From a virus (taxonomy: Duplodnaviria; Heunggongvirae; Uroviricota; Caudoviricetes), in the IMG/VR virus record IMGVR_UViG_2627853701_000015: a stretch of DNA of 25,688 nt. One strand, written 5' to 3'. The notes beneath the pieces are model-generated. The model was given only the letters and a program-made list of their open reading frames with translations. It searched no databases and had not been told where the DNA came from. The position numbers were made by a program, and so were the translations under genes. Of the stretch, positions 9,233 to 24,423 are shown piece by piece; position 1 is the stretch's first letter, and each line of letters starts with the position of its first letter.

Positions 9233-9258
9233 GCTCGAAACGAAATATAATTTCGAGC
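9233..9258. repeat. inverted repeat at the 3' end of the hotspot operon
   Basis: GCTCGAAA-N10-TTTCGAGC between the hotspot operon end (9289) and the upstream module; no U-tract, so terminator function is uncertain. Confidence 0.3.
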
Positions 9259-9288
9259 ACCCCAATTAGCAGTTATATTTTTAATGTA

Positions 9289-9855
9289 TTAAACAGGATA
9301 AAAACCAGAGCTTCCATTCTTATTTAAGTTATGGATTTTATTTGCATCATTAATTTTTATTTGGAACGTCGGACCTTTATTCTCAAGAATTACAATCTGG
9401 AAATTATAGTCCCTTTTGATTAATGCGTGATAAAATGAATCACTGAGACTGACGCTATTAACATCCGATAGAGAACCCCCTCTATCTTTATCAAAGTGCG
9501 TCACTAATGGACTATCAAGCACAACAAATCCAATGAATGGATTCCCTTTTCTTGATAAAAATTCCGCAAAGCAAATGGTAAATATAGCATGCATTACTGC
9601 ACGGGTACCTTTACCAAACATTCCTCGGCGTTTCCCATTGATATTAAAGTCATATGTATCTTCGTCAAATCGCACTTTGTTATCTTTAGAATTTTCAAAA
9701 TTTATATCATTCAAAAAGTCTTGCATCGCTATTTCTATATCATACAAATCAGCTACTGTTAAGGAGTCAAAGTCCTCGGCGGAGTATTTAAGTTCGTCAA
9801 CATCATCTTCTTTATCTTGTAATGAAGATAGAATGCTATGTTTTGTGTGATCCAT
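9289..9855 (-). CDS. ABC/SMC-like ATPase, C-terminal head segment
   Basis: 188 aa; signature-like 'FGKGTRAV', Walker-B-like 'FIGFVVLDSP', D-loop-like 'THFD'; start ATG overlaps the upstream stop (TAATG at 9853-9857); ~28% GC. Confidence 0.55.
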   Translation of the reverse strand: MDHTKHSILSSLQDKEDDVDELKYSAEDFDSLTVADLYDIEIAMQDFLNDINFENSKDNKVRFDEDTYDFNINGKRRGMFGKGTRAVMHAIFTICFAEFLSRKGNPFIGFVVLDSPLVTHFDKDRGGSLSDVNSVSLSDSFYHALIKRDYNFQIVILENKGPTFQIKINDANKIHNLNKNGSSGFYPV

Positions 9856-12568: not shown

Positions 12569-13657
12569 TTAACTCCTTTTTAGTCTTTCAAATATCAAAT
12601 TACTGTACCAGTCCATCATAGACTTCCTTCCACTAAAATATTGAGCATGGTTATAAGTCCCCCTAATAGAATTTTTATCTACATGAGCCAACTGGATTTC
12701 AATCCAAGCACTCTCAAAACCTTGCTCATGCAGGATTGTAGAAAGGGTATGACGAAAACCATGTCCAGTGACTTTTCCTCCATACCCAATACGCTTAATG
12801 GCTTGATTTATACTCGCTTCGCTCATTGGCCTATTCGGATCGTTCCGCCCTGGAAAAACATAACGATAGTTCCCTGTCATGATCTTGAGTTCATTGAGTA
12901 AATCTACCGCTTGAGATGATAAGGGCACAAGATGTGGCCTACGCATTTTCATCCTTTCAGCAGGAATTTCCCAAATAGCGTTATCCAGATCAAATTCTTG
13001 CCATAATGCCGCGCGTAATTCGATGGTTCTCACACCCGTAATCATCAGTAATTTCGTGGCTATCTGGACAAGCTTACTCCCGGAGTAACCCTCTAAGGCA
13101 CGTAGAAAATCAGGTATCTCATCAGCTTTTAGGAATGGGAAATGATTGGATTGGTGTACTTCGAGAGCGCTGGAGAGATCAGCCGCAGGATTGTACTCCG
13201 CCCTACCCGTTGCAATTGCGTAGCGAAACACCTCTCCCACAGGCCTTGTTCCGACATAAGGAAAAATGTCGTTCTTAAACGCTTCCATGATGTCTGATGC
13301 ATATCCCGCCGACCATTTAGCAGATTTAAGTTGATGCCACTCTCTGGCTATCTTTTCGAAGGCGTTCTCTGACTCTGTTTGCATAGCTAGCTTTTGCTCT
13401 TTTCGAACCTCACTAGGGTTCTTTCCTTCTGCCACAAGTTTTCGAGCTTCATCACGACGGGAACGAGCATCGGCAAGGGTGATCGTTGGGTAAACACCAA
13501 GCGAGATCATTTTGGGTTTGCCGGCATAGCGATAGCGGAACCGCCAACTCTTGCTTCCATTAGGTTCTATAAGTAATGACAACCCTAGCCCATCTCCAAA
13601 TGTATAGGCTTTAGCTTCAGGCTTAGCGCGGCGAATCTGCATATCGTTTAAAGGCAT
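12569..13657 (-). CDS. int: P4-type tyrosine integrase
   Basis: N-terminus 'AKPEAKAYTFGDGLGLSLLIEPNGSKSWRFRY', catalytic region 'GHGFRHTLST...AHVDKNSIRGTYNHAQY' (R..H-x-x-R...Y); directly downstream of a tRNA 3' end. Start set at the internal ATG (MPLND...); the ORF track extends to 13708. Confidence 0.9.
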   Translation of the reverse strand: MPLNDMQIRRAKPEAKAYTFGDGLGLSLLIEPNGSKSWRFRYRYAGKPKMISLGVYPTITLADARSRRDEARKLVAEGKNPSEVRKEQKLAMQTESENAFEKIAREWHQLKSAKWSAGYASDIMEAFKNDIFPYVGTRPVGEVFRYAIATGRAEYNPAADLSSALEVHQSNHFPFLKADEIPDFLRALEGYSGSKLVQIATKLLMITGVRTIELRAALWQEFDLDNAIWEIPAERMKMRRPHLVPLSSQAVDLLNELKIMTGNYRYVFPGRNDPNRPMSEASINQAIKRIGYGGKVTGHGFRHTLSTILHEQGFESAWIEIQLAHVDKNSIRGTYNHAQYFSGRKSMMDWYSNLIFERLKRS

Positions 13658-16090: not shown

Positions 16091-16960
<870 letters not shown>

Positions 16961-17017: not shown

Positions 17018-17572
17018 TCATTTATCTCCGGCCGGAAACTTCTTATACAGTGTCGATACACCAACATCATAGATGATCGCTACCTTCTGGCGAGGAATTC
17101 CTGCTGCAATTAATCGTCCGGCCTGCGCCCATTGTTCTGGTGTAAGTTTGGGACGACGTCCACCAATTCGTCCCTGTGCGCGAGCAGCTTCCAGTCCAGC
17201 TTTTGTTCGTTCAACAATCAGTTCTCGTTCCATTTCAGCCAGGGCCCCCATCACATGAAAGAAAAAGCGCCCCATTGGGGTACTGGTATCAATAGCATCC
17301 GTCAGGCTGCGAAAATTAACGCCACGTTCGCGCAACTCCTCAACCAGAATGACCAGATGCCGCATACTGCGCCCCAGCCGATCCAGTTTCCAGACAACCA
17401 GAGTGTCACCTGCCGATAATGTCCTGAGCAGTTTTTTCAGTCCCGGCCTTTCGGACTTTGTACCGCTTATCTTGTCTTCAAAAATCAGCTCGCATCCTGC
17501 ACAGTTCAGCGCATTACGTTGTAGATCTGTGTTCTGGTCATTTGTTGACACACGTACATAGCCAATAAGCAT
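17018..17572 (-). CDS. pin: Pin/Hin/Gin-family serine DNA invertase
   Basis: 'MLIGYVRVSTNDQNTDLQRNAL...VVWKLDRLGRSM...GRFFFHVMGALAEMERELI' is the serine-recombinase catalytic domain with C-terminal HTH; AGGGAG 8 nt before the ATG at 17572. Confidence 0.9.
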   Translation of the reverse strand: MLIGYVRVSTNDQNTDLQRNALNCAGCELIFEDKISGTKSERPGLKKLLRTLSAGDTLVVWKLDRLGRSMRHLVILVEELRERGVNFRSLTDAIDTSTPMGRFFFHVMGALAEMERELIVERTKAGLEAARAQGRIGGRRPKLTPEQWAQAGRLIAAGIPRQKVAIIYDVGVSTLYKKFPAGDK

Positions 17573-17626
17573 GGTAGATCTCCCTGACAAAAGCAGGAAT
17601 GATGCCATTTGCTCGTTATTTCTGCA

Positions 17627-17652
17627 TTTTCATAAACGTTGGTTTGGGAGAA
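17627..17652. repeat. invertase crossover site, left
   Basis: TTTTCATAAACGTTGGTTTGGGAGAA is the inverted partner of the site at 19485-19510. Confidence 0.65.
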
Positions 17653-18012
17653 GCGGCAAAACGGGATGTGGGGACAGGGGAAAATCAGATACCGGACATG
17701 GCCTCTTTTGCCAGTGGTAATGGTTGGATGAAATTACCCAACGGGAAAATCCTGCAATATGGTCGTGGTGCGGTTACGCCGACATTATCGACGCAAACAA
17801 TGAGAATTACATTCAGCATCCCTTTCCCCAAAAAAGCGGACTGCGCCATGCTTACTCATTCTGGTGATGGCGGTGCGCCTTTAGGCGCTGGGCGAGGGTT
17901 CGTGATGACTGCAGAAGGCCCAACGTTAACCGGCTTTAATTCTGCTTACAGAACGTCATCAACCAGCGACACGGTATCGATGAATTACAGTTGGTGGGCT
18001 GTTGGTGAGTAA
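17653..18012 (+). other. silent alternative tail-fibre C-terminal cassette
   Basis: Reading frame inside the invertible segment, opposite orientation to the expressed fibre gene, followed by its own assembly gene; would be fused to the constant part after inversion. Confidence 0.5.
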
Positions 18013-18023
18013 TTTTATTCAGG

Positions 18024-18476
18024 GTGATTTATATGGACGAATATGTTTATAGCGCAAGGCATAATGCTTTTTTCCCTGTGGATATGATTGATAAATATAA
18101 ATCAGAGGGATGGGATTTATCAGACGCTAAGGAAGTAAATCAAAATATTATCAGTGAGTTTATGGCTGAACCGCCACAAGGAAAAATCCGTATTGCCGGA
18201 GATGATGGGCTGCCTGCGTGGGCAGATATTCCTCCACCCACGCATGAAGAGCTTATTGAAATTACTGAATCAGAAAGACAGCTACTAATTAACCAGGCCA
18301 ACGAATACATGAACAGTAAGCAATGGCCCGGTAAAGCCGCTATTGGTCGTCTGAAAGGTGAGGAACTGGCGCAATATAATTTGTGGCTGGATTATCTGGA
18401 CGCACTGGAACTGGTCGATACTTCCGGTGCGCCAGATATTGAATGGCCTACGCCTCCGGCAGTTCAGGCCAGATGA
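18024..18476 (+). CDS. tail fibre assembly protein (alternative cassette)
   Basis: 150 aa; C-terminal 'APDIEWPTPP' is shared with the opposite-strand paralogue; sits directly after the silent fibre cassette. Confidence 0.65.
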   Translation: MIYMDEYVYSARHNAFFPVDMIDKYKSEGWDLSDAKEVNQNIISEFMAEPPQGKIRIAGDDGLPAWADIPPPTHEELIEITESERQLLINQANEYMNSKQWPGKAAIGRLKGEELAQYNLWLDYLDALELVDTSGAPDIEWPTPPAVQAR

Positions 18477-19041
18477 CATCCGGCGCGGTGCTGGTATCTG
18501 TTGCCGTCACCGCGTCAATGTAATCCAGCACGGCGTTAAGTCGGGTTGTTTCTGCCTGAGTCAGTTTCCGTCCGGCCTGTAACTTCAGCTGAATCAGACT
18601 AATGGAAGCCATTGCTGCATCAATCAGTGATTGGCGCTGTGCTTCTGCCGCGTCTACTGCGGCACTGTGTTGTGCCTCAGTGTCTGTCACCCATTTCTCA
18701 CCATCCCATTTATCGTATGGCGTTAACGGTGAAATCGTGACATAACCGTCTTTGATGGCACCGATATAATCCACTGTAACAGCTGCGCCATTTTCGATTG
18801 AGTAAACAGTCTCATTGCGATGGTCTTCTTCATGGCTCCATCCCTTACCTGTAAATACTGCCACTCTTCCCGGAATGTTTTCGCCAGGGTCAATACCAGT
18901 GGAACAGGCGGGCATACTTACGCCAGTATTAATATATTCATCAGACCAGCCCGTATACTCAGATGTTTCAGCATCATAATAAAAACAACGCATATCGCCC
19001 GGCACTGTAGCCAGCCCATTTTCATCAAAAACAGGTTTCAT
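18448..19041 (-). CDS. tail fibre assembly protein
   Basis: 197 aa; start overlaps the fibre stop (ATGA at 19041); C-terminal 'APDVIWPELP' paralogous to the other cassette. Confidence 0.7.
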   Translation of the reverse strand: MKPVFDENGLATVPGDMRCFYYDAETSEYTGWSDEYINTGVSMPACSTGIDPGENIPGRVAVFTGKGWSHEEDHRNETVYSIENGAAVTVDYIGAIKDGYVTISPLTPYDKWDGEKWVTDTEAQHSAAVDAAEAQRQSLIDAAMASISLIQLKLQAGRKLTQAETTRLNAVLDYIDAVTATDTSTAPDVIWPELPEA

Positions 19042-19835
19042 TATTTAGCCCTCACCAGAAAGTTAAATGCAATATTTCGCGGTCTGACTGCAACAAAATT
19101 CACACCATCACCCACAGAGTTACTGGTGAAATTAAATCGTGAAAATCCTGGCTGATTTCCGGCGATGCCATCATGAAAGTTAATTGCGTGTCCCGCACCT
19201 TCGCCTATATTCCCGGCAAACTGAGAAAAGTTTGTAGCTGCCTGCCAGCTTAATAATTCGCGACCACCGTCTGCACCTCGCCCGTCATCCCAGATACGAA
19301 TGAAATCACCGCGGGCTTCAGGTAATACCAGCGAAGGAAACACTTTCGCCAGCACAGGATAATCAGTGGCAGAGAATTTCGCGCCGTTGAACTTCAAAAA
19401 CACCATACAGGACCAGCTGTCGATTACAGTATTTGGCATTGCAGCGGACGGCCAGAAGAACGGAACGCCAATAGCTGGAGCACCTTCTCCCAAACCAAGG
19501 TTTTGAAGAGCCGTTTTCACCGTGCCGTCCGATTTGATATCGCCAAACGGATTCTTGCGGCTCAGGTATTCAACAGCAAACCCCGATCCCAGCAATTCAA
19601 CAAAACCGGGCAGATCACCATTATCAAGCACATCCCGTTGCGTTTTATCACTTACAAACTGGGCCAGAGCTGCAGCAATAAAGCTGGCCTGCCGAATAAC
19701 CTTATTGACTTGCGCACTGGATGCTTTCCCTGCTGTAAATCCGGATATAAGCGCAGGCAACGCTTCCCATTCCTCCTGCGACATAACATTGGCATTTCGA
19801 TCAGTTGCAAACGCTTTAAAGTCATTTTTCGCCAT
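19041..19835 (-). CDS. side tail fibre protein, constant N-terminus joined to the currently expressed variable C-terminus
   Basis: 265 aa from 'MAKNDFKAF...'; the crossover site at 19485-19510 lies inside the gene, so the C-terminal ~150 aa belong to the invertible segment. Confidence 0.7.
19485..19510. repeat. invertase crossover site, right
   Basis: TTCTCCCAAACCAAGGTTTTGAAGAG; its reverse complement matches the site at 17627-17652 at ~21 of 26 positions. Confidence 0.65.
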
Positions 19836-20146
19836 CAGAGTAATACTCCCCATGCCCCTACATCAAAACCACTGATGAATTCGTTATCCATATCAAAACC
19901 AAAAAATTTAGAGCCTTCCGATGGAGTTTCCACCGAAGGTGTTTCAATGCCCCCCGCCCATACCCCGGCGGCTTTTACTGTTAGATACCCCTGTTTAATT
20001 GCCGCAATTAACTCACGCGATACATCTGAAATATCAGTATCAGGAAAGACCCAGACCGATATCGTCATGTCCTGGTTATCGATGTTGGCGATCCGACGCA
20101 TCTGCTCACGGTCAAAGTTAACCATCTGTGCGGCGATGTTTTTCAT
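19835..20146 (-). pseudogene. lambda P-type gene truncated after ~21 codons and fused to the 3' end of a tail-module gene
   Basis: 'MKNIAAQMVNFDREQMRRIAN' matches the lambda P N-terminus as I recall it, with ATGA overlap to O; the rest is unrelated and ends at the fibre start. Confidence 0.6.
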
Positions 20147-21042
20147 AAATCCACCCCGTAAATCCAGTCAGTGTTTGTCAGGTCGAGTTTTGGTTTGCTG
20201 GCTGTCACGCCTGCCTGTTGCTTGTTACGGTTGATTTCGAGCTGGGTCCACTTGTCGCGGAGTTTGGCCGGACTCAGCACGTTACCGGACCAGAAGTTGT
20301 CCTGGCAGGCCCAGCGGAAAAGCACACACATATCGCGGTGGTTACGTCCGTCACGTTCACGCATCAGGCGGATATCGTTAGCCCACCCAGCAAAATTCGG
20401 TTTTCTGGCTGATGGCGCGATGGTCTTCACCATGTCAAACATCCACTCTGCGGCGGTCAGGTCTTCTGCTGTTCCCCACTTGCTGCCGCTCTGAATTGCA
20501 GCATCCGGTTTAACCACAGAAAGATCGTTTTCTGGCTGGTCAGAGGATTCGCCAGAATTCTCGGACGAATAATCTTTTCTTTTTTCTTTTGTAATAGTGT
20601 CTTTTGTGTCCCCCTGTTTTGAGGGATAGCAATCCCCCAATTTGAGGGATGTTTTATCCCTCGTTTTAGGGGATTTTCCCTCGTTTTGAGGGATACACCA
20701 TTCTGAGATGTTTTTATTTGGTCCAAACATGCCGCCTTGCTGCTTGATAATATTCATTCTGACGAGTTCTAACTTGGCTTCATTGCACCGTTTGACAGGT
20801 AACTTTGTAATCTCGCTAAGTTGAGAATCGGTGATTCTGTCCATTGGTTTATTCCACCCATAGGTTTTACGCAGAATGGCAAGCAGCACTTTAAACTGTC
20901 GCTTGGTCAGATCTGCGCCCGAATAAGCCTCAAGCAGCATATTTGATAGTCTGGCGTAACCATCATCGAGATCTGCCACATTACGCTCCTGTCCGGCAAA
21001 GTTACCTCTGCCGAAGTTGAGTATTTTTGCTGTATTTGTCAT
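20143..21042 (-). CDS. O: lambda O-type replication initiator
   Basis: 299 aa 'MTNTAKILNFGRGNFAGQERNVADLDDGYARL...' matches lambda O as I recall it; the iteron array lies inside the gene. Confidence 0.9.
   Translation of the reverse strand: MTNTAKILNFGRGNFAGQERNVADLDDGYARLSNMLLEAYSGADLTKRQFKVLLAILRKTYGWNKPMDRITDSQLSEITKLPVKRCNEAKLELVRMNIIKQQGGMFGPNKNISEWCIPQNEGKSPKTRDKTSLKLGDCYPSKQGDTKDTITKEKRKDYSSENSGESSDQPENDLSVVKPDAAIQSGSKWGTAEDLTAAEWMFDMVKTIAPSARKPNFAGWANDIRLMRERDGRNHRDMCVLFRWACQDNFWSGNVLSPAKLRDKWTQLEINRNKQQAGVTASKPKLDLTNTDWIYGVDL
20608..20696. repeat. ori-lambda iterons
   Basis: Four ~19-bp repeats of TCCCTCnnnnTGAGGGA type with an adjacent AT-rich tract (20570-20605), inside O. Confidence 0.8.
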
Positions 21043-21074
21043 AATGACTCCTGTTGATAGATCCAGTAATGACC

Positions 21075-21368
21075 TCAGAACTCCATCTGGATTTGTTCAG
21101 AACGCTCGGTTGCCGCCGGGCGTTTTTTATTGGTGAGAATCGCAGCAACTTGTCGCGCCAATCGAGCCATGTCGTCGTCAACGACCCCCCATTCAAGAAC
21201 AGCAAGCAGCATTGAGAACTTTGGAATCCAGTCTCTCTTCCACCTGCTGATCTGCGACTTATCAACTCCCACAGCTTCCGCTGTCTTCTCAGTTCCAAGC
21301 ATTGCGATTTTGTTAAGCAACGCACTCTCGATTCGTAGAGCCTCGTTGCGTTTGTTTGCACGAACCAT
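21075..21368 (-). CDS. cII: CII transcriptional activator
   Basis: 'MVRANKRNEALRIESALLNKIAMLGTEKTAEAVGVDKSQISRWKRDWIPKF' matches lambda CII; start at the internal ATG. Confidence 0.9.
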   Translation of the reverse strand: MVRANKRNEALRIESALLNKIAMLGTEKTAEAVGVDKSQISRWKRDWIPKFSMLLAVLEWGVVDDDMARLARQVAAILTNKKRPAATERSEQIQMEF

Positions 21369-21486
21369 ATGTAAGTATTTCCTTAGATAACAATTGATTG
21401 AATGTATGCAAATAAATGCATACACCATAGGTGTGGTTTAATTGGATGCCCTTTTTCAGGGCTGGAATGTGTAAGAGCGGGGTTAT

Positions 21487-21696
<210 letters not shown>

Positions 21697-21713
21697 TTAG
21701 TACATGCAACCAT

Positions 21714-21777
21714 TATCACCGCCAGAGGTAAAGCAGTCAACACGCGCGGTGTTAGATATTTATCCCTTGCGGTGATA
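21714..21777. promoter_or_regulatory. OR1-OR2-OR3 operators with divergent PR and PRM
   Basis: TATCACCGCCAGAGGTA (21714-21730), CAACACGCGCGGTGTTA (21738-21754), TATCCCTTGCGGTGATA (21761-21777) between cro and cI. Confidence 0.85.
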
Positions 21778-21784
21778 GATTTAA

Positions 21785-22501
<717 letters not shown>

Positions 22502-22628: not shown

Positions 22629-22983
22629 ATGAAGAAAGCAGCAATTTTAATTGATGCGGGTTTTTTCATGCAGCGTGTTCATGCTACGCATCGTAAACAC
22701 TTCGCCGAGCATGAACTGACTGCGCAATGCATAATGAAAGTAATATGGTCAATGGTTCTTTCCCATCTTAATGGAAAACGTCAATCACAAGAACGTAGGG
22801 AACCGCTTGAGCTTTATAGAATTTACTTCTATGACTGTCCACCACTCGACATTCAAACACGCCTTCCACTTCCTGAGCCTGGCAATAAGACGCCTGGTCG
22901 CAAGAATTTCAAACTCGAAAAATCATATATTCTGAGAACGGAGCTGCATGAAGAGTTAAGAAAAACTCGAAAAACAGCCATAA
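22629..22983 (+). pseudogene. gene at the rexA position downstream of cI, interrupted by IS629
   Basis: 118 native codons run into the IS left end at 22984; joining across the IS gives ~153 aa; no resemblance to RexA that I can see. Confidence 0.5.
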
Positions 22984-23037
22984 TGAACCGCCCCGGAAAT
23001 CCTGGAGACTAAACTCCCTGAGAAAGAGGTAAACAGG

Positions 23038-23364
23038 ATGACTAAAAATACTCGTTTTTCCCCCGAAGTCCGTCAGCGGGCGATTCGTATGGTTCTGGAA
23101 AGTCAGGATGAATATGACTCACAGTGGGCGGCAATTTGTTCCATTGCCCCAAAGATTGGCTGTACGCCGGAGACTCTGCGTGTCTGGGTTCGCCAGCATG
23201 AGCGGGATACCGGGGGCGGTGATGGTGGGCTCACCAGCGCTGAACGTCAGCGTCTGAAAGAGCTGGAACGTGAAAATCGTGAACTGCGCCGCAGTAACGA
23301 TATCCTTCGCCAGGCTTCCGCTTATTTTGCGAAGGCGGAGTTCGACCGCCTCTGGAAAAAATGA
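23038..23364 (+). CDS. IS629 OrfA (HTH/leucine-zipper transposase subunit)
   Basis: 108 aa ending at the A6 slippery tract 'GGAAAAAATGA' typical of the IS3-family -1 frameshift. Confidence 0.85.
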
Positions 23365-24251
23365 TGCCACTGCTGGATAAGCTGCGTGAGCAGTACGGGG
23401 TCGGACCGGTATGCAGCGAACTGCATATTGCCCCGTCAACGTATTACCATTGTCAGCAACAGCGACATCATCCGGATAAACGCAGTGCCCGTGCGCAGCA
23501 CGACGACTGGCTGAAGAGAGAGATACAGCGCGTATACGATGAAAATCATCAGGTGTACGGTGTGCGTAAAGTCTGGCGTCAGTTGTTACGGGAAGGAATC
23601 AGGGTGGCCAGATGTACAGTGGCACGTCTCATGGCGGTTATGGGACTTGCCGGTGTTCTCCGGGGTAAAAAGGTCCGTACGACCATCAGCCGGAAAGCCG
23701 TTGCCGCAGGCGACCGCGTAAACCGTCAGTTCGTGGCAGAACGACCTGACCAGCTGTGGGTGGCTGATTTTACTTACGTCAGCACATGGCAGGGCTTCGT
23801 CTATGTGGCGTTTATCATTGATGTGTTTGCCGGATACATCGTGGGGTGGCGGGTCTCATCGTCTATGGAAACGACATTCGTGCTGGATGCGCTGGAGCAG
23901 GCGTTGTGGGCCCGTCGTCCGTCTGGCACCATCCATCACAGCGATAAAGGCTCTCAGTATGTGTCACTGGCCTATACGGAGCGACTAAAAGAAGCCGGAT
24001 TACTGGCATCAACAGGGAGTACAGGCGACTCGTATGACAACGCGATGGCTGAGAGCATCAATGGTCTTTACAAAGCGGAGGTAATACACCGTAAGAGCTG
24101 GAAAAACCGTGCAGAAGTGGAACTGGCCACACTAACGTGGGTGGACTGGTATAACAATCGACGATTGCTGGGAAGGCTGGGCCATACTCCTCCGGCAGAA
24201 GCAGAAAAAGCTTATTATGCTTCCATCGGAAACGATGATCTGGCAGCCTGA
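23361..24251 (+). CDS. IS629 OrfB (DDE transposase catalytic subunit)
   Basis: 296 aa; DDE region 'WVADFTYV...HHSDKGSQY...DNAMAES'; overlaps orfA in the -1 frame. Confidence 0.85.
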
Positions 24252-24423
24252 GTTCACAGATAAAACACTCTCCAGGAAACCCGGGGCGGTTCATAACCAA
24301 TTGTATTTATTTTAAAATTAATAGGTGCAACTCACTAAACAACGCAATTCTGATCTCTCGATCACCTCCCAAGCCACACAACCCTGCAAAAAATAAATCT
24401 ATATAAAAAACATACAGATAACC

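Follow-up and report, generated by a model that had tools for sequence, protein, structure and literature searches.

The invertible P segment of the K-12 prophage e14, with its invertase PinE, is the closest described relative of the locus analysed here (Plasterk and van de Putte 1985, reference 34 of PMC4272514; PMC4272514; PMC12529663). According to a 2025 report, the e14 segment governs phage adsorption in K-12 (PMC12529663). The Gin system of phage Mu and the Cin system of phage P1 act on 26-bp sites with a 2-bp core and have an enhancer within the invertase gene, towards its 5' end; both belong to viable phages in which inversion brings a real change of host range. Invertible tail-fibre segments are also found in intact myoviral prophages of E. 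coli, among them vB_EcoM-611R5, 606R2 and 683R1 and EC958 Phi1, Phi2 and Phi4 (PMC4134206).

The window (the whole 25,688-nt stretch of DNA analysed) represents prophage Sp1 (CP-933H) of E. coli O157:H7, a defective 10.6-kb remnant integrated at thrW; e14, by comparison, is located at icd. Gene content and the Sakai annotation agree that head, tail, lysis and packaging genes are all absent, and cI, cro, cII and O are intact. Sp1 does not excise, replicate or package its DNA, but mitomycin C does induce its early genes (PMC2669165). We conclude, with a probability of about 85%, that Sp1 contains an intact and currently active inversion system of the Din family (Gin/Cin/Pin/Hin), closely related to the P segment of e14 and in its present role most likely a relic that still works.

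The pin gene (17018-17572, minus strand) encodes a serine DNA invertase of 184 aa, a member of the Din subfamily. Its start is the ATG at 17572; a 196-aa reading frame from 17608 is an upstream extension, and the 184-aa form is preferred because PinE, Gin and the RefSeq annotation all match it. Pfam identifies a Resolvase domain (PF00239, 8e-52, residues 3-135) and an HTH_7 domain (PF02796, 1e-15, residues 138-181). Pin is 96.7% identical to PinE of K-12 e14 and about 83% identical to Cin, and it matches the Gin structures 3uj3 and 4m6f across residues 1-181 (E = 5e-94). Residues Y5, R7, S9, D33, R42, D64, R65 and R68 align with Y6, R8, S10, D36, R45, D67, R68 and R71 of gamma-delta resolvase, in which the roles of the active-site residues are well established; the same residues also align with Gin, and none of the catalytic residues is mutated. 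Position 114 carries the wild-type residue, methionine (M114); the crystallised hyperactive Gin has valine there. Pin belongs to the Din subfamily by its size, domains, active site, crossover sites and the inversion itself.

The crossover sites lie exactly where the initial annotation placed them, to the base. The pin-proximal site (17627-17652, plus strand) is 26 bp long, reads TTTTCATAAACGTTGGTTTGGGAGAA and has its core TT at 17639-17640; it lies 55 bp upstream of the pin ATG, which bears out the earlier statement that it adjoins the pin start. The distal site (19485-19510, minus strand), also 26 bp, has its core at 19497-19498 and reads CTCTTCAAAACCTTGGTTTGGGAGAA as the reverse complement. 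It was said to lie inside the fibre gene, and is indeed within the 264-aa reading frame at 19041-19835. The two sites are identical at 20 of 26 positions, with a 20-nt arm that is perfect save for one position, and show internal dyad symmetry at 8/12 and 9/12 positions. Both have TT as the central dinucleotide; this matters because religation after inversion needs a shared core. Across the 25.7-kb window there are exactly two copies of the 20-mer core (0.00 expected from 100 shuffles). Compared with e14, the pin-proximal site is the same as the pinE-proximal site at 26/26 positions and the distal site matches its counterpart at 24/26. The identity of the proximal site, together with the two Pin domains and the Gin and PinE matches, agrees with the earlier assignment to the Gin/Cin/Pin family. 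A shufflon-like arrangement with multiple inversions was also considered and is rejected: no further crossover site with up to three mismatches is present in the window.

A candidate recombinational enhancer (sis) covers nt 19-90 of pin (17483-17554, minus strand). It contains two Fis-like 15-bp G-N13-C cores, at 17537-17551 and 17488-17502, both of which occur at equal positions in pinE and gin. The interval aligns ungapped with nt 19-90 of P1 cin, which is annotated as 'enhancer of Cin-mediated C-segment inversion', and the distance from the proximal Fis-like core centre to the crossover centre is 95.5 bp, identical to that in Mu. The initial annotation suggested a search for an enhancer in the 5' part of pin; the interval there is a homologue of the annotated cin enhancer, with a putative enhancer function. 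Among pin, gin and cin, too small a sample to weigh either way, synonymous sites show no excess conservation in this interval (in pin and gin, for example, identical codons make up 10/22 of those for the same amino acid within the interval and 56/116 elsewhere).

On the model of the homologous Gin and Hin, dimers of Pin would bind the two 26-bp sites, and Fis bound to the enhancer at the 5' end of pin would promote assembly of the invertasome. Ser9 is then expected to cut at the central TT/AA dinucleotide, and a 180-degree rotation of subunits followed by religation would flip the 1858 bp that separate the site centres.

As proposed earlier, the invertible segment holds two opposed cassettes, each made up of a fibre C-terminus and an assembly chaperone; this is confirmed by Pfam and PHROG assignments and by in-silico inversion. 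In the orientation of the window, the fibre gene (19041-19835, minus strand) encodes 264 aa starting MAKNDF..., with a constant N-terminal part (19511-19835) and a variable, collar-type C-terminus (19041-19484) that has a weak Collar match and is 41% identical to StfE. The region first described ends at 19835, and this is where the fibre gene truly starts, in agreement with the annotation of Sakai (ECs_0280) and of phage vB_EcoM-611R5; the 264-aa fibre of this myovirus is 97% identical over its full length. The fibre gene is followed by a TfaE-like chaperone gene (18448-19041, minus strand; Caudo_TAP 2e-27, 65.5% identity to TfaE, phrog_105). The opposed cassette consists of a stored fibre C-terminus (17653-18012, plus strand; Pfam Gp53-like_C, 1e-12) and a TfaP/YfdK-like chaperone gene (18024-18476, plus strand; Caudo_TAP 9e-31, 53% identity to TfaP, phrog_188). 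The stored C-terminus is part of a short reading frame of 137 aa (17599-18012, plus strand), annotated as ECs_0283 or gp53-like protein, in which an 18-aa leader located outside the segment, MMPFARYFCIFINVGLGE, is fused to it across the site.

In-silico inversion yields an alternative fibre in frame, of 242 aa from an upstream ATG or 236 aa from MAKNDF. The two fibre forms have their first 123 residues in common when counted from the upstream ATG (117 from MAKNDF), and either C-terminus is followed by its own Tfa. Inversion hence determines which cassette continues the constant 117-aa fibre N-terminus in frame, the choice being a collar-type C-terminus with a TfaE-like chaperone or a Gp53-like_C C-terminus with a TfaP-like chaperone.

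Sp1 shares with e14 the order of fibre constant part, cassette, opposed cassette, site and pin; the same two cassette types, which together with the PinE-type invertase and the pix sites make it an e14-type P segment; a short leader reading frame across the pin-proximal site; and the setting, a lambdoid prophage that is defective and carries a defence gene beside pin. The cassettes themselves have strongly diverged (Sv 41% and 31% identity, Tfa 65% and 53%), and about 97 aa at the fibre N-terminus are unrelated to StfP. The segment measures 1858 bp from centre to centre in Sp1 and 1827 bp in e14. Sp1 is also far more deleted than e14, with its fibre operon fused directly to the lambda early operon, and it has the defence gene PD-T4-3 where e14 has mcrA.

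The resemblance to Mu and P1 extends to the enzyme family, the type of site, the position of the enhancer (in Sp1, a candidate), the Sc-Sv fusion and the chaperone downstream. Unlike these phages, Sp1 has no virion. Its fibre is short (264 or 236 aa, compared with 504 aa for Mu S), and P1 differs further in that the 3' end of cin adjoins the P1 segment.

Both orientations of the Sp1 segment are found in the O157:H7 population. The window orientation gives an unbroken 3301-nt match of 99.8% identity in 117 complete genomes, while the computed inverted sequence gives an unbroken, ungapped 3301-nt match in 86; the two forms therefore occur at comparable frequency among near-identical O157:H7 genomes. 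DNA alignment of strain 7386WT with its NalR derivative 7386Nal reveals a 1860-bp segment that is the exact reverse complement. Near-identical cattle isolates also differ in orientation (147 and 148 from 149; 111 from 112). In the AR-0428 assembly, the chromosome has the window orientation and the inverted form is on a 46.9-kb 'plasmid', pAR-0428-2, which is really a chromosomal alternative contig; the presence of both forms in one assembly is a signature of a mixed culture (PMC4134206). One genome has a suspicious pair of copies spaced 44 kb, and the M1300706001A assembly contains duplicated copies of the segment.

The Sp1 switch is intact and active, as shown by the finding of both orientations among genomes, in a strain and its derivative, and within a single assembly. 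The segment can demonstrably flip in a single culture as well as in the course of a laboratory lineage. Neither a single fixed orientation nor a mutated Pin active site was found, the two observations which the initial annotation regarded as evidence against a functional switch. Literature searches on this inversion in O157 (CP-933H, ECs0284, Sp1) gave gene-level mentions only.

RecA-dependent recombination between the inverted repeats, or faulty assembly, is an extremely improbable source of the two orientations. Inverted repeats can misassemble, and the copies spaced 44 kb are in keeping with this. However, the perfect repeat is just 20 bp, too short for efficient exchange, and a breakpoint at the core dinucleotide correctly predicts the ungapped 3301-nt match in 86 independent assemblies. 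The exact reverse complement in the 7386 pair and the presence of an intact dedicated invertase, with a candidate enhancer alongside, also speak against it, and this reading is rejected. In K-12, PinQ and PinR act in trans on e14 (PMC12529663); another invertase acting in trans, for instance the Gin of Sp18, could similarly catalyse flips of the Sp1 segment.

Sp1 was described initially as heavily deleted, and this is correct: it was gutted via one clean deletion junction, at about 20083, where lambda P is fused to a baseplate gene. The scar is a reading frame (19835-20146, minus strand) in which the N-terminus of lambda P (about 21 aa) runs into the C-terminal 86 aa of a baseplate-proximal protein; codon ~21 of P meets codon ~141 of the baseplate gene. 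This reading frame is annotated in Sakai as a P pseudogene. Over residues 18-103 its product is 95% identical to residues 141-226 encoded by the gene that precedes the fibre gene in vB_EcoM-611R5, and DNA homology with this phage begins at 20082. Prophages of the 611R5 type have the same gene order (upstream baseplate gene, Tfa, opposed Tfa, stored C-terminus, invertase), and are probably the donor type of the Sp1 module; they have kept their baseplate and tail genes, whereas in Sp1 nothing remains of the upstream baseplate gene but its last 86 codons.

A lambda-type pR (21712-21740, minus strand; TTGACT-17-GATAAT) is the best promoter match in the region and alone stands out in a simple promoter scan. 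In the same scan no convincing promoter was seen for pin or for the short reading frame in the 55-bp spacer, and total matches did not exceed those in shuffled sequence. Transcription from pR is likely to read cro-cII-O-P'-fibre-tfa. Any transcription of the fibre genes would, we infer, be by read-through from this SOS-inducible promoter.

The initial annotation called the locus a host-range switch. This captures where the module came from but not what it does today: virion genes are absent from Sp1, the element is neither excised nor packaged, and the fibre constant domain is single-copy, as no second copy of it or of the baseplate remnant is found in O157 genomes. Since every virion, lysis and packaging gene has been lost, a host-range role is gone for Sp1. 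The further suggestion that the switch is retained because it is functional is unproven; O157:H7 is a young clone, and consequently the lack of decay says little about retention.

Directly downstream of pin is the defence gene PD-T4-3, identified by a full-length match (E = 2e-140); its position beside pin could account for the keeping of this end of the prophage. The switch might then be neutral cargo: the deletion spared the distal prophage end, which was kept by hitch-hiking for PD-T4-3, and perhaps an AraC regulator, and not for the switch. This is possible but, in our judgement, rather unlikely. PD-T4-3 occupies the slot held by the restriction gene mcrA beside e14 pinE, there is a single clean deletion junction, and the module is virtually invariant across about 200 genomes of a recent clone, all of which are consistent with hitch-hiking. 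It leaves unexplained why inactivating mutations are absent from pin, both sites, both cassettes and both chaperones. Nor does it conflict with the main reading of a still-working relic; the two could hold together.

The switch could also be a domesticated anti-phage device, in which a fibre-derived protein made in one orientation blocks adsorption of incoming phages; the candidates are the leader-plus-Gp53-like product of 17599-18012, which corresponds in position to StfE2, the long fibre, or both. In e14, inversion of the P segment is reported to create StfE2 and to block T2 adsorption (PMC12529663). Sp1 has the same architecture, with a leader reading frame over the pin-proximal site and Gp53-like_C and collar cassettes, and the window orientation is the counterpart of the e14 'inverted/resistant' state. 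The 137-aa product is 31% identical, over its full length, to StfE2 assembled from K-12 StfE and StfP, although much of this match falls in the leader and site. PD-T4-3 as a neighbour and the SOS-inducible pR also point in this direction. However, the cassettes have strongly diverged from those of e14, and BLASTP of the 137-aa product against StfP gives no match at E = 1e-3. Neither fibre product matches the PADLOC models, and conservation within the young O157:H7 clone is uninformative on selection. On balance an anti-phage role of this kind is improbable.

A fuller form of the same idea, somewhat less probable again, is that O157:H7 has co-opted the switch as a reversible, SOS-linked anti-phage device. 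The deletion set the fibre operon directly behind the still-inducible pR-cro-cII-O-P', and inversion by Pin would select the fibre-derived products. The long Sc-Sv form, and the short leader-Sv form as the analogue of e14 StfE2, might mask different outer-membrane receptors, alongside PD-T4-3.

The switch is of a textbook type, ordinary and essentially already known; the mechanism is familiar and the Sakai reference genome already annotates pinE, tfaE, yfdK and yfdL, which makes the import for basic biology small. The locus does illustrate that a recombination module can remain fully active after a prophage has lost all that the module was built for, and the O157 copy offers a ready-made test for the generality of the e14-type defence role. 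The 1.86-kb segment is a genuine phase-variable locus of O157:H7. In outbreak genomics it can yield spurious contigs, false 'plasmids' (e.g. pAR-0428-2), apparent duplications (e.g. the copies in M1300706001A) and SNV hot spots. Separately, ECs0281 and ECs0284 are listed among SNV-enriched genes (PMC6112667).

The invertible segment belongs to E. coli O157:H7. About 200 complete O157:H7 genomes match the 3.3 kb around the switch at 99.8% identity. The Sakai reference places this region in 'prophage Sp1, lambda-like phage' (CP-933H in EDL933), a 10.6-kb remnant at tRNA-thrW which adjoins the P4-like element Sp2.

An inverted form was computed by flipping the segment between the two core dinucleotides, and was searched against 5,426 complete E. 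coli genomes. In 86 genomes it aligns over 3301 nt without a break, at 99.8% identity, which puts the breakpoints exactly where they were predicted. The window's own orientation has an equally unbroken match in 117 genomes. Very close relatives carry interleaved orientations. The inverted form is found in strain 7386WT and the window's form in 7386Nal, a nalidixic-acid-resistant derivative of that strain; the 1860-bp segment is an exact reverse complement between the two. Orientations are also opposite between cattle isolates 147 and 148 versus 149, and between 111 and 112; these isolates have near-identical genome lengths and coordinates.

Assembly AR-0428 contains the window's form in the chromosome and the inverted form in a 46.9-kb linear 'plasmid', pAR-0428-2 (NZ_CP044147.1). 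This RefSeq 'plasmid' is in reality a chromosomal alternative contig and carries the chromosomal genes thrW, proAB, phoE, crl, gpt and pepD together with Sp1 and Sp2. Forde et al. (PMC4134206) describe the same artefact in long-read assemblies of cultures holding both orientations. The M1300706001A chromosome (NZ_CP089272.1) has both forms 44 kb apart (4421635-4424935 and 4465381-4468681); this may be an 'artefactual duplication' of the kind of which Forde et al. warn. Both cases are probably assembly artefacts from mixed-orientation cultures. A single orientation in deep read data, and mutation of Pin catalytic residues, had been named in the initial annotation as evidence against a working switch. 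Both orientations exist and the active-site residues are intact; consequently, the switch is functional.

Recombination takes place between two 26-bp crossover sites, one next to the invertase gene pin (17627-17652, TTTTCATAAACGTTGGTTTGGGAGAA) and one distal (19485-19510, given as reverse complement, CTCTTCAAAACCTTGGTTTGGGAGAA). They are identical at 20 of 26 positions and have the central dinucleotide TT in common. Both are imperfect palindromes, built from 12-bp half-sites that are symmetric at 8/12 positions in one site and 9/12 in the other. The window has exactly two copies of the 20-mer common to both sites, and 100 dinucleotide-preserving shuffles of it have none. No third crossover site was found within the window; the arrangement is therefore a simple switch with two states, not a shufflon.

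The switch had been described as two opposed cassettes between the sites, each a fibre C-terminus plus assembly gene, with the right site inside the expressed fibre gene; all parts are present as described and at the positions given. Four elements fill 17653-19484: a stored fibre C-terminus with a Gp53-like_C domain (17653-18012), a TfaP-like Caudo_TAP chaperone on the plus strand (18024-18476), a TfaE-like Caudo_TAP chaperone on the opposite strand (18448-19041) and the C-terminal part of the expressed fibre (19041-19484). Beyond the right-hand site comes the constant N-terminal part of this fibre, which begins at the ATG at 19835. The Sakai annotation has the same start and length (264 aa), and so does the full-length fibre of myovirus vB_EcoM-611R5, which is 97% identical. 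The reading frame is intact in both orientations after in-silico inversion. In the window's state, the C-terminus fused to the constant part is weakly Collar-like, with 41% identity to StfE of the K-12 cryptic prophage e14 and 93% to the tips of the mEp043 and mEp213 phage fibres; the TfaE-like chaperone follows. In the other state the constant part is fused to the Gp53-like_C domain, followed by the TfaP-like chaperone. An 18-codon leader between pin and the near site runs across the site into the stored cassette, forming a 137-aa ORF in this window (17599-18012). A similar leader is found in e14, which has the same cassette types (StfP with Gp53-like_C, StfE with Collar) in much diverged sequence.

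Pin (17018-17572, minus strand) has 184 amino acids; a 196-aa ORF is an upstream extension of it. Its assignment as a Pin-type invertase is borne out by Resolvase and HTH_7 domains and by 96.7% identity to PinE of e14. Residues 1-181 align to crystal-structure sequences of the Mu invertase Gin (E = 5e-94), and Pin also aligns to gamma-delta resolvase. It keeps the nucleophile Ser9 and the residues aligning to resolvase Y6, R8, D36, R45, D67, R68 and R71, whose catalytic roles are established in that enzyme. At position 114 Pin has the Met of wild-type Gin; the Gin variants that were crystallised have Val there, which relieves Fis dependence. From this residue, Pin should be an ordinary enhancer-dependent invertase.

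A search for the recombinational enhancer in the 5' part of pin had been suggested, and a candidate is located there by homology. The P1 record annotates an 'enhancer of Cin-mediated C-segment inversion' at nt 19-90 of the invertase gene cin, and over this interval pin, pinE, gin and cin form an ungapped alignment. Two 15-bp cores with the G-N13-C outline of a Fis site are found at pin nt 22-36 (17537-17551) and 71-85 (17488-17502); pinE and gin have both cores in identical register. Centre to centre, 95.5 bp separate the proximal core from the crossover site. This equals the Mu value and is consistent with the ~100 bp quoted for Hin (PMC3798978). A synonymous-site conservation test over the interval found no excess, or was underpowered.

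In every feature that can be judged from sequence, the switch conforms to the Din invertase family and to an e14-type P segment. The system is a known one and the genome has been studied heavily; the genes are already annotated as pinE, tfaE etc. A literature search found no paper explicitly describing inversion at the O157 Sp1 locus; despite this, tail-fibre inversion as a phenomenon is routine.

The element itself is not a virion-producing phage. As had been noted, it is heavily deleted: all genes from P to the end of the baseplate cluster are gone. The scar is a 103-aa ORF upstream of the fibre, made of ~21 lambda P codons and 86 codons from the end of the gene preceding the fibre in vB_EcoM-611R5; DNA homology to that phage begins at 20082 of the window. 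That record, the closest intact-looking phage, is probably an over-extended prophage prediction; its invertase is annotated at 104 aa (9246-9560 of the phage record), truncated and followed by host genes. For its own switch to invert, an invertase acting in trans would be needed. Sp1 neither circularises nor replicates, and it is not packaged (PMC2669165). The fibre constant part and baseplate remnant are present once per O157 genome, so there is no obvious recipient among resident tails. The description as a Gin/Cin/Pin host-range switch thus holds for family and two-fibre architecture and not for present role; it reflects ancestry.

An intact lambda immunity circuit (near-lambda cI, cro, cII and pR) is retained (pR 21712-21740; cI 21788-22501; 19835-21687). 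The deletion has brought the fibre operon immediately downstream of O-P', so that any fibre transcript most likely comes from pR by read-through, and the fibre genes may be SOS-inducible. In a 2009 microarray, Asadulghani et al. (PMC2669165) found the residual early genes of Sp1 clearly induced by mitomycin C, without explanation.

Persistence of the switch can be read in three ways. In a clone as young as O157:H7, an intact relic requires no selective explanation. The switch may also hitch-hike with an anti-phage gene immediately downstream of pin: 16187-16960 (plus strand; ORF from 16136) is a full-length PD-T4-3 match (PADLOC, E = 2e-140) with a LEM-3-like GIY-YIG domain. It occupies the slot of the restriction gene mcrA next to pinE in e14, which suggests that defence cargo beside pin is a conserved arrangement. 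The most interesting reading is a possible co-option for an anti-phage role. When the homologous e14 segment is inverted in K-12, the chimeric protein StfE2 arises and blocks adsorption of T2 (PMC12529663). By position, the window's orientation corresponds to this 'resistant' state, and the 137-aa ORF is 31% identical to StfE2 as assembled here from K-12 sequences; the analogy is one of architecture.

The window is colinear with Sakai apart from four kinds of difference. A 1.3-kb IS3-family (IS629/IS1203-like) insertion at 22981-24295, downstream of cI and a 127-aa ORF, is absent from Sakai and is found at the same position in 7386WT. At 13231/13232, in or near the Sp2 integrase gene, 93 bp of Sakai are missing. 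Five of eight substitutions fall within the invertible segment. Five substitutions (17724 and 18338-18410) are private to the window among the ~200 O157 genomes; four of them fall in a 73-bp stretch of the gene for the TfaP-like chaperone (D to E, T to A and two synonymous), a cluster resembling a short patch of gene conversion from a paralogous tfa. Finally, 23-bp ori iterons (~20611-20695) vary in copy number inside gene O (20143-21042). O is intact (299 aa) in the window and 7386WT; one additional iteron frameshifts it in Sakai and 7386Nal, so that copy number differs even between 7386WT and its derivative.
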